Sequence record: NC_054910.1
Direction: 5' to 3' (one strand)
DNA from: Escherichia phage EcNP1
DNA length: 64,000 bases
The notes below the pieces were generated by a model, which worked only from the letters and a program-made list of their open reading frames with translations, was not told the origin of the DNA and made no database searches. Shown one piece after another: positions 5,532-17,803 of the stretch (positions within the stretch are counted from its first letter, which is position 1; the number at the start of each line of letters is the position of its first letter). The position numbers and the translations under genes are program-made.

Positions 5532-6069
5532 TTACTATTTCCAACAGTTTATTATTTTTAAGGTAGTTAGCCTTTTCTAGGACTTCAGAAGCATATTTAG
5601 AACCTGCTTTAACATTCCATCCCGAATTATAAGAGGATATTGCCTTTCTTATATCGCCCTTATGTATATTTAACCAATAAGAAAGTTCAATGTACGCCCA
5701 GGAAGCTGAATTGGACCGTTTATTCAACATTCTTTTTATTTCAGCATCGGTCATATTATAACCAAGTTCCTTAACTCTTGCTCGCATGGTCGGCAAATAA
5801 TTTTGGAACATTCCATAGGCATGATGCTTTGGTTTAGATTTTAAATTAACTCCGGCAGAGCTTTCTTGCCATAAAATAGCAGCCATTATATGACCTAATC
5901 CGCTCTTGTGGATATTTTTATGTGTTTTATATTTTCCATCCTTGGAAAATTGTTCCCCGAATTGATACGCGTAACGCATGTTATCGAGTTGGACATTACT
6001 GAAAGTATGCTCGGAGCTATGTGCCATCATAGAAATGGCCAATAGACCAGCGAGTAGTGCTTTTCTCAT
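5524..6069 (-). CDS. signal-peptide lytic transglycosylase (SLT-domain) protein
   Basis: 181 aa; signal peptide; SLT-like catalytic block ILWQESS ... YGMFQ. Confidence 0.65.
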   Translation of the reverse strand: MRKALLAGLLAISMMAHSSEHTFSNVQLDNMRYAYQFGEQFSKDGKYKTHKNIHKSGLGHIMAAILWQESSAGVNLKSKPKHHAYGMFQNYLPTMRARVKELGYNMTDAEIKRMLNKRSNSASWAYIELSYWLNIHKGDIRKAISSYNSGWNVKAGSKYASEVLEKANYLKNNKLLEIVND

Positions 6070-6076
6070 GCTTACC

Positions 6077-6538
6077 TCATTGAGTTTTAATTACTGCTTT
6101 AGAAGCCTTTCCCGGTAAACGACGACTATTGATAATTGCCATCCTGCACTGAAGTGACGGGTCTTTGAACTTCGCATTAGGTTTACAAACTGTAAATCCA
6201 AGCCAAAGATTTCCATCTGTGATTTCTAAACGCCCAGGACGATATTCAACCCCATCAATAAAATCCTCATCAATGTCAGGCCGCGGAGGCATACTCAGGA
6301 ATTCATTAACTTCTAAAACATGGTCTTTTATTTTGTGGAATAATTCAAAAACATATGTCTCATCAATCTCCCGCTGAATTGCACGATCAAGAAGATGCTG
6401 AGAATATTTTAGATGAAACGATGAGACTCCTGCTGCTTTTGATGCCTCACGAATCTCATTGTTAATTTGACGAAACTCCGACTCAAAATGACGACGGAGT
6501 TTATTTCGACGGATAAAAACTTCTGTGTTGATAGTCAT
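6077..6538 (-). CDS. regB: RegB site-specific endoribonuclease
   Basis: 153 aa, length and sequence match T4 RegB as recalled. Confidence 0.85.
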   Translation of the reverse strand: MTINTEVFIRRNKLRRHFESEFRQINNEIREASKAAGVSSFHLKYSQHLLDRAIQREIDETYVFELFHKIKDHVLEVNEFLSMPPRPDIDEDFIDGVEYRPGRLEITDGNLWLGFTVCKPNAKFKDPSLQCRMAIINSRRLPGKASKAVIKTQ

Positions 6539-6544
6539 GTTATT

Positions 6545-6595
6545 CTCCTCTTAACTGATAGAAAAATTATACCACAGTCAAGAGGAAAAGTAAAC
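6545..6595 (-). promoter_or_regulatory. early sigma70-type promoter with -10 inside a hairpin
   Basis: minus strand GTTTAC-N18-TATAAT; inverted repeat TCCTCTT/AAGAGGA flanks the -10 and supplies the regB SD. Confidence 0.5.
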
Positions 6596-6597
6596 AG

Positions 6598-6876
6598 TTA
6601 TTCTTTAAATCTAATCAATTTATTCATAGACTTTGAAACTTCTGCACGAACCTCATGTAAATTTTTGAGTTGCTCAAGACGCTGCGCATAGTAAGCAATT
6701 TCATCTTCTTCGAGACAGTCCTGTGAATCTTCTTTAAGATAACGCGCATAGTCCTGGAAAGCGTTACGGACTACTTCCTGGAAGTCATCAAGACTTTGAA
6801 TTTTCTTAGGAGCAACAGATACACGACGAGGGGCAGTATAATACTCATAACCAAACCCTGCGCTTAATTGAGCCAT
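6598..6876 (-). CDS. hypothetical protein
   Basis: ORF 6598..6918 in track; start placed at internal ATG giving TAATG overlap with upstream gene. Confidence 0.5.
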
Positions 6877-7142
6877 TAATATTTTTCCTCTGGTTGGAAC
6901 ACTGCACGACAAGCCCACATACTGGCTTCTTTGAGTTTCGTTTTAGCAATAGTTAACTGATCGAGACTTTCAGCATAATTCTTCGCGAATTCACAGTCTT
7001 CACAATTATCTAGCGCTTCCCAGAATTCATCATATAAAGCATCAAAGATAAGTCCTAAACGAACTTCAGCATCTTTGATAGCATTCACTTTACTGATTTT
7101 ATCGTCAGTATGTGGCTTATAACCTTTAATGTCTTCAATCAT
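6876..7142 (-). CDS. hypothetical small protein (positional equivalent of T4 vs.4)
   Basis: 88-aa ORF; fourth gene upstream of regB; sequence identity to the T4 protein not verifiable from memory. Confidence 0.45.
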
Positions 7143-7356
7143 ATTTTACTTCCTCACCTGTTCCCAAATCATATTCAACTAAACGAATAGGTTCATGAAT
7201 GCCATATCCTTGAACAGAAATTTCTGTCGTAGGATAAATTCCATTAATATCACCCATGTTCCACGCTTCATTAAATTGCTGTTCGCCTGAATTACTAAAC
7301 CACTCGGCGAAAGCATTTAGCACATCTTCAGAACCTTCAATAATTATCTTTGCCAT
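7135..7356 (-). CDS. hypothetical small protein
   Basis: 73-aa ORF. Confidence 0.5.
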   Translation of the reverse strand: MAKIIIEGSEDVLNAFAEWFSNSGEQQFNEAWNMGDINGIYPTTEISVQGYGIHEPIRLVEYDLGTGEEVKYD

Positions 7357-7730
7357 TACAAACTCTCAGTAAAGGTACGAGCAATAACGTCGCGTTGCTG
7401 CTCCGGAGTCAGAGAGTTAAAGCGAACTGCGTATCCGGATACACGGATGGTCAGCTGCGGATATTTTTCCGGATGCTTAACTGCATCTTCCAGAGTTTCG
7501 CGACGCAGAACGTTTACGTTCAGGTGTTGACCACCCTCGATTTTAACTGTAGGTCGTGTTTCAATTTCAATTTCACGGGCATGCAAACCATAGAAAATTT
7601 CTGGGTCTACAAAAGAATCCTCTTTAAAGGTTTTAGAAACAATAATTCGTGCTTGAATACCATCTTCAAAATAAATAGTACCTTTATGTGTGCCTTCAAG
7701 AATTTGGTATGCTTTCATATAACCTCTCAA
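7356..7730 (-). CDS. autonomous glycyl-radical cofactor, GrcA/YfiD-like
   Basis: C-terminal about 60 aa ([60 protein letters not shown]) match E. coli GrcA as recalled, including the RVSGYAV glycyl-radical motif. Confidence 0.85.
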
Positions 7731-8107
7731 TTAGAAAATAAATTTATCCAAGATTGTTCTTTAATTAAAAATGGCTCAGAATCATATGCCATTAAACTTT
7801 GGGTGATTAGTCCTTTAAAAGGTCCATCAATAAATTCCATGGTAAAATATGGAATTTTATTCATTAATCTTGCATTAGGAGCAGTGCACAAAACTCTGCA
7901 TCCTTTGAATACACCTTTTTGTAATTTGTATTGCTTAGGATAAAATTCGCTCAAGACGTTGTTATTTGCCAAAATTTCAAAATGATTCACCAATTTATTT
8001 TTAACAGTTTTTGGCGAAAAATAAAGATATTCGAAAAGTTGCGTATCTGTCATCATTGCATTCCAATTACGAAAAACTGTGGACGAGTAATACCACCAAT
8101 GCAGCAT
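7727..8107 (-). CDS. hypothetical protein
   Basis: 126-aa ORF; start uncertain, overlaps the end of the upstream ATPase gene. Confidence 0.4.
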
Positions 8108-8643
8108 TTACTATTGCAGCAGTGTTGCACAGTTTCAATATGAATATCGTAAATTTTATCCATATCAGGAGCTTTAACAGGCTCATCAATTATATACAAA
8201 ATTCGAGAAAGTGATAAGCCTCTGAATTTGCTACCTCTATTACCAATAAAACTACGGACAGAATCAATAAATAAGCGGAATCGAATATCATCGCTAGAAT
8301 AACGAGAAAATTCTTTTTTAATGTGTCCCGCAGAAATTTTAGCATAAGCTGAAGTATTAGAAAGAACAATAACTGTTCCACCGTCATACAACCAATTAGC
8401 GGCAAAATTAGTTACTGCAGCTGATTTACCGGATTGTCTGCCACCATCTAAACGAAGTGTACAATATTCTTTAAATAAATGCGACGAATCAAGTACATAA
8501 AATCCACTATTACAAATTTCTTCTACTCTAGCATCAGAATGGTGTGTAAAAGCATTCATCAGGGATAGATAAGGACCAGTTAAAAATGTTCTCATTTTAT
8601 TCTCTCTAAATTTGGGCCATTCCATGGCGCATGAATTGTCCAT
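8053..8643 (-). CDS. P-loop NTPase
   Basis: Walker A GGRQSGKS and Walker B ILYIIDEP; C-terminal CCNSKCC. Confidence 0.55.
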   Translation of the reverse strand: MDNSCAMEWPKFRENKMRTFLTGPYLSLMNAFTHHSDARVEEICNSGFYVLDSSHLFKEYCTLRLDGGRQSGKSAAVTNFAANWLYDGGTVIVLSNTSAYAKISAGHIKKEFSRYSSDDIRFRLFIDSVRSFIGNRGSKFRGLSLSRILYIIDEPVKAPDMDKIYDIHIETVQHCCNSKCCIGGITRPQFFVIGMQ

Positions 8644-8772
8644 TTCTGTATTTACCCATTACCGCACTTGGGCTCGACCTTATTACAGGTTGGCGGGAAT
8701 CCCTCATAGAATCATGAGGTCCAGCTTGTTCCCATGTTATTTGAATGTAAATAGGCCTAAGTATCGGCCTTA

Positions 8773-9348
8773 TTAATTACCACGGGCTGCATTAGCAACG
8801 GCGTAAGCATACTGAACATTAGCGTCTTTAAACGTACCTTTAGAGGTATCTAGTTCTGCCTTAAAGCCGCCTTTAGTCATAACCTCGGCGAATTCTTTAC
8901 GGAAAGCCATTGCATCAAGACCTTTCCATGCCGATTTGTGCTTGGCAAATTCAAGACCGGCGAAGTTGACAGCCTTAGCTAATTTATTATCAATAACCCA
9001 TTTACCAGCTTTAGGCGCAAACACTGGGCCTTTCTGTTTAGAGAATAATTTTAAATTCCAGCGACGAAGGTCACCGTCAGCTTTAACAAAAGCTGCGTCC
9101 AAGTTACTAGCAACAACATCTTGAATATGGCCAAATTTAAGCCCATCAACTTCAATATTTAGATCAGTACGCCAGCGAAGTCCTTCCCAAGCGAAAGCTT
9201 TAAAGTCGGAAGCTTTTGTAGCTAAGTATCGTTCAATAGGGGCTGTTTTAGGGTCAAAACCATTTCCTCGGTAAGTCCACTCATCTTTATTAATGCCTTT
9301 GGCCTTTTCCACAGAAGCTTCAGCGATAAATTCTTTATACGTTTTCAT
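8773..9348 (-). CDS. ipIII: internal protein III (capsid-targeted, injected)
   Basis: 191 aa; N-terminal capsid-targeting motif MKTYKEFIAE; size matches T4 IPIII. Confidence 0.8.
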   Translation of the reverse strand: MKTYKEFIAEASVEKAKGINKDEWTYRGNGFDPKTAPIERYLATKASDFKAFAWEGLRWRTDLNIEVDGLKFGHIQDVVASNLDAAFVKADGDLRRWNLKLFSKQKGPVFAPKAGKWVIDNKLAKAVNFAGLEFAKHKSAWKGLDAMAFRKEFAEVMTKGGFKAELDTSKGTFKDANVQYAYAVANAARGN

Positions 9349-16876: not shown

Positions 16877-16952
16877 ATTGGTCGAGGCAGTAGGGATCGA
16901 ACCTACGACCTAGGACTTAGAAGGTCCTTGCTCTTCCTTCTGAGCTATGCCT
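16877..16952 (-). tRNA. tRNA-Arg (anticodon UCU)
   Basis: hand-folded 76-nt cloverleaf, loop CUUCUAA, T-loop UUCGAUC, encoded CCA. Confidence 0.85.
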
Positions 16953-16956
16953 CGGA

Positions 16957-17031
16957 TTTGGCGGACGTGATAGGATTCGAACCTATAACCAATCGCTTAA
17001 CAGGCGATCGCTCTGCCATTGAGCTACACAT
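16957..17031 (-). tRNA. tRNA-Asn (anticodon GUU)
   Basis: hand-folded 75-nt cloverleaf, loop CUGUUAA, T-loop UUCGAAU, encoded CCA. Confidence 0.8.
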
Positions 17032-17035
17032 CCAA

Positions 17036-17122
17036 ATTGGTGGGGAGTGATGGAGTCGAACCACCCGAGTCGCAATGACAATGGATTTACAGTCCACACC
17101 GCTACCTCTACGGAATAACTCC
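17036..17122 (-). tRNA. tRNA-Tyr (anticodon GUA)
   Basis: 87 nt, class II with long variable arm, loop CUGUAAA, acceptor GGGGAGU/ACUCCCC, encoded CCA. Confidence 0.8.
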
Positions 17123-17131
17123 CCAAATTAA

Positions 17132-17206
17132 TTTGGTGGCCCTGGGTGGAATTGAACCACCATCTGGCGATTATGAGTCGCTTGCTTGAACCTTCCAGCT
17201 ACAGGG
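17132..17206 (-). tRNA. tRNA with anticodon CAU (Ile2 or Met)
   Basis: 75 nt, loop CUCAUAA, T-arm GGUGG-UUCAAUU-CCACC, encoded CCA; T4 carries a CAU Ile tRNA here. Confidence 0.8.
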
Positions 17207-17207
17207 C

Positions 17208-17283
17208 CTTGGTGCTGATTGACGGAATCGAACCGCCGACCTTCTCATTACAAGTGAGTTGCTCTACCTACTGAGCTAAATCA
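17208..17283 (-). tRNA. tRNA-Thr (anticodon UGU)
   Basis: 76 nt, loop CUUGUAA, encoded CCA. Confidence 0.85.
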
Positions 17284-17288
17284 GCAAA

Positions 17289-17378
17289 ACTGGCGGAGGC
17301 GATAGGATTCGAACCTATGAGTCGCCGGAGCGACTGCCGGTTTTCAAGACCGGTGCATTAAACCACTCTGCCACGCCT
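17289..17378 (-). tRNA. tRNA-Ser (anticodon UGA)
   Basis: 90 nt, class II long variable arm, loop CUUGAAA, encoded CCA. Confidence 0.85.
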
Positions 17379-17380
17379 CC

Positions 17381-17454
17381 AGTCTCCATACAAGGATTTG
17401 AACCTTGGACCTCCTGATCCCAAATCAGGCGCTCTACCAAACTGAGCTACACGG
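17381..17454 (-). tRNA. tRNA-Pro (anticodon UGG)
   Basis: 74 nt, loop UUUGGGA, T-arm CAAGG-UUCAAAU-CCUUG, CCA not encoded. Confidence 0.8.
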
Positions 17455-17464
17455 AGTAAATTAA

Positions 17465-17540
<76 letters not shown>

Positions 17541-17543
17541 AAA

Positions 17544-17630
17544 TTTGGTGCGAGAAGTGGGACTCGAACCCACAAGGAAATCATTCCGCAGCATTTTAAG
17601 TGCTGTGCCTTTACCAATTTGACCATTCTC
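17544..17630 (-). tRNA. tRNA-Leu (anticodon UAA)
   Basis: 87 nt, class II long variable arm, loop CUUAAAA, encoded CCA. Confidence 0.85.
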
Positions 17631-17631
17631 G

Positions 17632-17704
17632 CGCTGGGAATAAAGGACTCGAACCTTTGCATCCTGGAATCAAAATCCAGTGCCTTACCAACTTGGCTAA
17701 TTCC
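17632..17704 (-). tRNA. tRNA-Gln (anticodon UUG)
   Basis: 73 nt, begins UGGGAAUUAGCCAAGUUGGUAAGGCA as in T4 tRNA-Gln, CCA not encoded. Confidence 0.85.
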
Positions 17705-17803
17705 CAATTATTAACAAAGGCTCTCAAACAAGAACCCTTGATGATAGAGGGTATTAATCAGTGCGGTATGAGTTAATAATAACAAATAATTCTTAAAGCA
17801 TAT

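Follow-up and report, generated by a model that had tools for sequence, protein, structure and literature searches.

Can one part of a virulent phage gene be DNA of the bacterium it infects and, if so, in which direction and how often was it exchanged? The question is raised by a small gene on the minus strand of a 64,000-nucleotide stretch of Escherichia phage EcNP1 (NC_054910.1); the whole stretch is referred to as the window. The initial annotation placed an open reading frame (ORF) at 7356-7730 and described its product as a GrcA-like glycyl-radical cofactor, with a diverged N-terminal half and a last stretch of about 60 residues that appeared identical to E. coli GrcA (YfiD), and it read this identity as a hint of recent exchange with the host gene. 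Our analysis makes it highly probable that the gene, vs.6, encodes a T4-type GrcA and is a chimera of a phage N-terminal half and a patch of grcA that has passed recurrently from host to phage. With less confidence, we favour the view that frequent natural conversion keeps the 3' half of vs.6 matched to the grcA of whichever host the phage now infects, which would make it a record of the recent host species or allele.

The source phage is a Tequatrovirus (T4-like): positions 6000-9000 of the window share 99.8% of their nucleotides (nt) with Escherichia phage vB_EcoM_Nami and 95-98% with many further T4-like phages. A minus-strand ORF does exist at exactly 7356..7730, however its TTG at 7730 is merely the first possible start in the ORF listing and was rejected as the start of vs.6 in favour of the ATG at 7716-7718. 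The coding sequence (CDS) then covers 7356..7718 on the minus strand, i.e. 120 amino acids and a stop codon, in agreement with the annotation in relatives (a 363-nt CDS in Nami, 120 residues in T4). This assignment uses the ORF list, the Nami annotation, T4 orthology and domain matches. The protein has 98.3% amino acid identity to T4 Vs.6/Y06I (KJ477685) and to T2 over 120/120 residues. As far as sequence can tell, the ORF at 7356-7718 is the orthologue of T4 vs.6 (Y06I), an autonomous glycyl-radical cofactor, of which both the gene and the role are already known.

Composition and breakpoint of vs.6

A nucleotide alignment with host grcA had been suggested as the way to find a recombination boundary, and in a codon-guided alignment such a breakpoint is found at codon 61/62, window positions of about 7535-7538. 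The maximum chi-square is 89, and 0/2000 permutations gave a value as high. On the 5' side of the breakpoint 49% of the nucleotides are identical to E. coli grcA, on its 3' side 96%. The GC content climbs from 0.29 to 0.50 across it, and the GC content of third codon positions (GC3) is 0.17 in the 5' half of vs.6 and 0.46 in the 3' half, compared with 0.42 and 0.41 in the two halves of E. coli grcA.

The gene can be divided into three parts, all on the minus strand. The 5' half (codons 1-60, 7539..7718) is of the phage lineage and appears to be vertically inherited among T4-like phages, as judged by GC3 and by identities per genus. Its identity follows phage taxonomy, with 95-96% to the Tequatrovirus genomes compared, 86% to Mosigvirus and 72-73% to Jiaodavirus, and among complete E. 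coli genomes it has no detectable DNA similarity to grcA. The second part, from here on the tract, comprises codons 61-117 (7368..7538), i.e. 171 nt with about 43 synonymous sites, and encodes the structured glycyl-radical domain. It is assigned a host origin from its identity, the breakpoint and the tree described below, and its codon choice is E. coli-like, with CTG used five times and CCG three times. The third part consists of the last three codons, GAG AGT TTG, and the TAA stop (7356..7367), which are phage-type and form a variable end of the tract: all E. coli alleles have GAA AGC CTG, and phage alleles vary at four positions there. The match ends at the stop codon, and no similarity to host DNA was found 3' of it.

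The boundary of the proposed conversion coincides with the domain boundary of YfiD, between residues 1-60, which are disordered, and residues 61-127, which are structured. By its alignments and composition vs.6 is most probably a chimera, in which an old phage-lineage N-terminal half has been joined to a patch of host grcA.

Origin and probable recurrence of the host-type tract

The last 183 nt of vs.6 match grcA in 5,426/5,426 complete E. coli genomes with 90-95.6% identity, well above what chance would give. Over the tract, the window is 95.9-97.1% identical to the E. coli alleles, O157 TR01 being the best (166/171), and every difference is synonymous. The tract is thus far closer to grcA than the remaining phage genome is to its host: the rest of the window has no megablast match to any E. 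coli chromosome, and the vs.6 segment is the sole such match. Comparison with T4 and other T-even homologues shows that the host-type tract is found there too. For T4, Shigella phage ESh32 and two Mosigviruses the tract is identical to E. coli at 170-171 of 171 positions, and the longest exact matches are 178 nt between T4 (strain 147) and E. coli AH01, and 157 nt between ESh32 and O157 TR01. The exchange is apparently not private to this phage, as judged by the genomes compared, and is common to essentially all Tequatrovirus and Mosigvirus genomes.

The E. coli grcA tract is 91-92% identical to that of Citrobacter amalonaticus, 87-88% to K. pneumoniae and 83-84% to Salmonella; the window tract is nearer to E. 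coli grcA than is the closest non-Escherichia genus compared. The scan of genome contigs covered 80 of 574 grcA loci, and K. pneumoniae was not among them. The K. pneumoniae grcA was therefore taken from elsewhere, a chromosome labelled as a plasmid in PLSDB. The grcA record of K. aerogenes NCTC10006 is frameshifted, and it was left out for the first part of the tract. Two other sources were considered and rejected. For pflB and tdcE as donors, the identity of the 3' ends with the phage tracts is only about 80-83% (79.5% for ESh32, 83% for Jiaodavirus UTI-K1). Contamination or an assembly artefact is at odds with the presence of the same junction in hundreds of independent genomes, including the 1980s T4 record X04567.

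Could the whole gene have been captured once, long ago, with the 3' half kept host-like by extreme purifying selection that extends to codon choice? The C-terminal domain is near-invariant as a protein in all phage and bacterial homologues, grcA is codon-biased, and the 3' halves of Karamvirus, Krischvirus and T5-like phages, at 70-80% identity to host grcA and with little GC3 jump, have the old and ameliorated look that such a history would give. However, selection on the protein cannot hold synonymous sites. The synonymous divergence (dS) of the tract between phage and E. coli is 0.02-0.125, while between E. coli and Salmonella it is 0.95 over the same codons; against the best E. coli allele it is 0.125 for the window and 0 for T4 (versus AH01). 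The difference in GC3 between two halves of one mRNA, and synonymous matches that are specific to host species and host allele, also speak against this history, which we regard as highly unlikely. The wider group of Karamvirus, Pseudotevenvirus, Krischvirus and T5-like Demerecviridae resembles vs.6 in having a two-part protein, with MKAYQ-type N-termini in most and a conserved C-terminal domain. They differ in that their 3' halves are 70-85% identical to any host grcA, with little or no GC3 jump. These look like old, ameliorated copies without sign of recent conversion.

Within E. coli the tract (1-4/171) is no more diverse than the sequence on either side of it, therefore the polymorphisms are native to the host. 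Together with the uniform composition of E. coli grcA, this points to a transfer from host to phage. In the reverse scenario, T-even phages would have been the source from which E. coli (and Klebsiella) gained the grcA 3' half or certain alleles of it. The allele closest to the window, of O157-TR01 type, is indeed in the minority, with 82/5,426 genomes in the top identity class, and a two-way exchange between host and phage has been proposed for cyanophage psbA (PMC1484495). Yet it is the phage gene, not E. coli grcA, that is heterogeneous in GC3, the pairwise identities of bacterial tracts put Citrobacter nearer to E. coli than Salmonella or Klebsiella, and the tract is no more diverse in E. 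coli than its surroundings. Furthermore, cells infected by virulent T-even phages rarely survive. We find the reverse direction extremely improbable.

Host-to-phage transfer appears to have taken place more than once. Between T4 and the Mosigvirus RPN187 there are 20/180 differences in the 5' half (dS 0.35) and 0/171 in the tract (Fisher p = 1.2e-6), i.e. there is a 171-nt island of 100% identity (vs.6 nt 181-351) between flanks that are 65-88% identical. The split of Tequatrovirus and Mosigvirus is therefore much older than the tract. Of the sites polymorphic within Escherichia, 5/5 are also polymorphic among 11 phage alleles, four of them with the same base pairs; a hypergeometric estimate for all five falling among the 15 phage-variable third positions of 57 is ~7e-4. 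At four diagnostic sites the T4-type haplotype equals AH01 (TTTC), and UGJNEcP2 and L097 equal K-12 (TCTC), while the ESh32 and window haplotypes are O157-TR01-like.

In the Jiaodaviruses of Klebsiella the architecture and the 5' junction are the same, and the tract is of the K. pneumoniae type. Its identity is 94-97% with K. pneumoniae grcA (for AM_K3, 119/120 in the first 120 nt) but only 85-88% with E. coli grcA. The GC3 is 0.57-0.61 in the 3' half and 0.22-0.23 in the 5' half, and where E. coli has ETLEDAVKH the proteins carry the Klebsiella/Salmonella form ETLLDAVEH. When a neighbour-joining tree is built from the tract, Jiaodavirus and K. pneumoniae form a clade in 406/500 bootstraps. 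Tequatrovirus, Mosigvirus and Escherichia form another in 479/500, within which the phage sequences are interleaved with individual E. coli alleles. Taken together, the T4/RPN187 contrast, the shared polymorphic sites and the K. pneumoniae-type tract of the Jiaodaviruses indicate that conversion of the tract by host DNA has probably recurred.

A simpler history would be a single recent capture of the 3' half of E. coli grcA by an ancestral T-even phage, followed only by spread from phage to phage. T-even phages recombine readily, Tequatrovirus and Mosigvirus share the 5' junction, and the identity of the T4 and RPN187 tracts, within a region otherwise 65-88% identical, is what such spread would produce. 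However, the phages hold at least three combinations of the sites polymorphic in E. coli, including the exact AH01 and K-12 haplotypes, and the Jiaodavirus tract makes at least two host-to-phage events necessary. In addition, the Tequatrovirus and Mosigvirus phages were monophyletic relative to the E. coli alleles in 0/500 bootstraps. A single capture is, in our judgement, unlikely.

Recurrent conversion could proceed as follows. During infection, host grcA DNA would enter the phage gene by homologous recombination or gene conversion. The patch installed in this way would be bounded by the shared similarity, from the start of the conserved core to a point no more than about 9 nt from the stop codon. 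The process may be self-reinforcing, as each round would restore perfect homology. Selection at the protein level for a fit to host PflB and PflA may help to retain the patch, but would be insufficient because it leaves the synonymous matches unexplained.

Several observations on other phages and records were made along the way. The KP15-like Klebsiella phages also encode ETLLDAVEH, and their E. coli/Citrobacter relatives (Margaery, RB43) ETLEDAVKH. With K. pneumoniae grcA, however, the KP15-like tract shares an identity of just about 81%; a conversion that was shorter or took place earlier could account for this, as could convergent selection for a match to the host. Tequatroviruses labelled as phages of Yersinia, Proteus, Hafnia, Salmonella and Pseudomonas have vs.6 products or 3' tracts near the E. 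coli type (183-185 nt at 92.9-96.8% to the window tract or to E. coli grcA, or 98-99% in amino acids). This hints that E. coli may be, or may have been, their usual host; if true, these isolates would have been multiplying in E. coli. A contig labelled Vagococcus sp. (NZ_JBQPOM010000029.1) has an Enterobacteriaceae-type grcA, 91% identical in amino acids to E. coli GrcA, and is probably mislabelled or contaminated. On a 19-kb IMG/VR contig (IMGVR_UViG_2706794630_000006) the 3' 183 nt of a grcA homologue are 91% identical to Yersinia grcA, and the contig, listed as viral, probably includes host DNA. The PLSDB plasmids include a 5.37-Mb K. pneumoniae record that is evidently a chromosome, and large Klebsiella fragments with chromosomal genes such as grcA; CP125156.1 and LR134122.1 are among the records concerned.

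The glycyl-radical domain and its proposed function

Residues 61-120 of the product (EGGQHL...TESL) are 100% identical to residues 68-127 of E. coli GrcA (BLASTP), as the initial annotation had proposed. The glycyl-radical motif RVSGYAV, residues 92-98, is encoded at 7425..7445 on the minus strand, and was placed by translation and by alignment to YfiD and to residues 697-759 of pyruvate formate-lyase (PFL). The codon of the radical Gly95, GGA, is at 7434-7436 (minus strand), equivalent to GrcA Gly102 and PflB Gly734. The Pfam family Gly_radical (PF01228) matches with 67.2 bits against a cut-off of 22.2 (2.2e-18), and the NCBIfam GrcA model (TIGR04365) with 2.4e-45, residues 20-120 being aligned to profile positions 25-126. 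The best solved relative is the nuclear magnetic resonance structure of YfiD (PDB 6owr, 3e-42). Residues 58-120 align to PFL 697-759, which is the sole region of PFL that is aligned. The 120-residue ORF is bounded by overlapping neighbour ORFs and lacks a PFL-type catalytic barrel, i.e. it has a small stand-alone architecture. These matches, like the orthology with T4 Y06I, fit the description as a GrcA-like cofactor.

The N-terminal half is diverged, as had been proposed. Among its alignable residues (22-60), 14/39 are identical to E. coli GrcA, a weak but real homology, and residues 1-21 give no alignment. This half is seven residues shorter than that of GrcA, with no relationship over the first ~21 residues. 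The motif MKAYQIL.G.HKGTIY is common across T-even genera, and MKAYQ also opens the T5-like homologues. Between Tequatrovirus and Mosigvirus the ratio of nonsynonymous to synonymous divergence (dN/dS) of the N-terminal half is about 0.15-0.2. Purifying selection on this half, together with an MKAYQ-type start kept out to T5-like phages, therefore suggests that it has a function of its own. AlphaFold2, run on the single sequence without an alignment, gave the phage protein a mean pLDDT (predicted local distance difference test) of 35.5 and a pTM (predicted template modelling score) of 0.22.

That a T4 homologue rescues oxygen-damaged PFL, as the initial annotation had stated, was reported by Wagner et al. 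2001. According to PMC8683613, which cites Wagner 2001 and Bowman 2019, the PFL activase places a glycyl radical on YfiD and on T4 Y06I alike, and both proteins associate in a complex with PFL that O2 has cleaved at Gly734 and restore its activity. The same paper gives G734 as the radical site of PFL, and describes how the structured C-terminal half of YfiD (61-127) replaces the lost PFL segment while its disordered N-terminal half (1-60) aids binding and activation. By orthology, the host activase PflA would install the radical on Gly95 of the phage C-terminal domain, and the radical domain would insert into host PFL cleaved by oxygen at Gly734. Production of acetyl-CoA and formate would then be restored, which could sustain fermentative energy metabolism in micro-oxic infected cells.

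Alternatively, the protein could serve the phage anaerobic ribonucleotide reductase NrdD, itself a glycyl-radical enzyme, or act as a decoy for the host activase, and have no part in PflB repair. A role in nucleotide metabolism was suggested earlier from the shared Gly_radical domain (PMC1524935), and in some Aeromonas and jumbo phages the homologue adjoins nrdG. Against this stand the identity of the domain with host GrcA, its alignment to PFL 697-759, formate C-acetyltransferase as the best large-enzyme model for the window protein, and the restoration of cleaved PFL in vitro by the T4 protein (PMC8683613). An NrdD or decoy function is very unlikely in our view.

The window allele, known parallels and the locus

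The tract of the window has an O157-TR01-like haplotype plus one K-12-type site, and four private synonymous changes (E61 GAG, Y96 TAC, E106 GAG, Q108 CAA). We suggest that this copy came from an O157-TR01-like E. coli haplotype and then acquired about four to five private synonymous changes, although a bacterial allele outside the sample could also be their source. An identical 183 nt is found in phage Killian only, and the next phage alleles have at most 96.2% identity.

Some of the evidence counts against a chimera that is refreshed often by host DNA and repairs PFL. The window tract departs from the best E. coli allele at five sites and has at most 80 nt of unbroken exact match with E. coli, and the window-private haplotype (TAC...GAG...CAA) was absent from metagenome contigs in two exact-pattern scans. 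The last conversion of this phage is therefore probably older than that of T4 and not very recent. The recent exchange with the host gene suspected by the initial annotation is supported at the DNA level, with the qualification that this copy is among the more decayed ones. No sampled phage allele is host-identical through the last three codons, and recombination between phages could explain a part of the tract sharing between genera. The allele comparison covers 11 phage and five Escherichia alleles, and the haplotype calls rest on four to five sites. As to the protein, the window product scores 153.9 bits with the GrcA model and misses the equivalog cut-off of 170 bits, which E. coli GrcA passes with 233.9, because of its divergent N-terminal half. 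The evidence for PFL rescue is published and comes from the T4 protein in vitro; the searchable literature reports no in vivo phenotype of vs.6.

The closest known system is T4 Vs.6/Y06I itself, which has the same length of 120 residues, the same position between vs.7 and vs.5 and an identical 60-residue C-terminal domain. The window protein differs from it by two residues, T54/R55 instead of P/Q, and its tract is more decayed, with five synonymous differences from E. coli against the 178-nt exact match of T4. A wider parallel is given by the cyanophage genes psbA and psbD (Zeidner 2005; Sullivan 2006, PMC1484495), where a metabolic gene of T4-like phages is likewise a mosaic with host segments. 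That mosaicism was detected by GC patchiness and recombination tests (PMC1484495). In contrast, the patch in vs.6 is one sharply bounded 171-nt block over one structural domain. It matches present-day host alleles exactly or almost so, and follows the host species (E. coli or K. pneumoniae) and, within a species, even the allele. As an example, from the classical coliphages, vs.6 is both cleaner and more recent.

The searchable literature (i.e. apart from Wagner 2001 and the 2003 T4 genome review) contains no report of the host-patch pattern of vs.6 at the DNA level. As the gene and its biochemical role are known, what is modestly new is its repeated conversion by host DNA. One structural domain of a virulent-phage gene is almost verbatim host chromosomal DNA, and it is the sole such segment in 64 kb. 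T4 has modified DNA of the hydroxymethylcytosine (hmC) type, and host DNA is degraded. If conversion does recur, it would be natural evidence that hmC-type phages that destroy host DNA still recombine with it over ~170-180 bp of homology. Confirmed at larger scale, the tract could serve as a natural gauge of how frequently T-even phages recombine with host DNA, and as a small marker of a phage's recent host. It would also call for caution in annotation and phylogeny, given the narrow miss of the GrcA cut-off and vs.6 trees that mix phage and host histories; phylogenies or genus-level average nucleotide identities that use vs.6 would be distorted by the host-derived patch. A functional question is raised as well, namely what the conserved phage-specific N-terminal half contributes when joined to a host-identical radical domain.

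The order of genes around vs.6 is vs.8-vs.7-vs.6-vs.5-vs.4-regB, a leftward string that is the same in Nami and T4, with vs.7 just upstream of vs.6 and vs.4 downstream. The stop codon of vs.6 overlaps the start of vs.5 (TAATG), and the vs.5 ORF covers 7135..7356, starting at 7356. A Shine-Dalgarno-like GAGG (7723..7726, minus strand, TTGAGAGGTTATATG) lies 4 nt 5' of the ATG at 7716-7718 and may act in translation. A promoter and terminator scan found no dedicated promoter for vs.6 and no enrichment (9 found, 7.9 expected). Two genes 3' of vs.6, the ORF at the position of vs.4 (6876-7142, minus strand) matches the Pfam Acb2/Tad1 hairpin domain with 1.2e-19. It is a predicted sponge for cyclic nucleotides, directed against the cyclic oligonucleotide-based antiphage signalling system (CBASS), and is labelled 'anti-CBASS protein 2' in some relatives.

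Further along the window, a cluster of ten tRNA genes is found at 16879-17706 on the minus strand (Arg, Asn, Tyr, Met(cat), Thr, Ser, Pro, Gly, Leu, Gln); T4 has eight tRNA genes. The Asn-Tyr part of the cluster (about 16973-17129) resembles, with 84-86% identity, a tRNA-Tyr/Thr/Asn cluster carried by ~110-kb E. coli plasmids. This match occurs in 255 genomes, including O104:H4 strains; apart from it and vs.6, nothing in the window had a megablast match among E. coli records.

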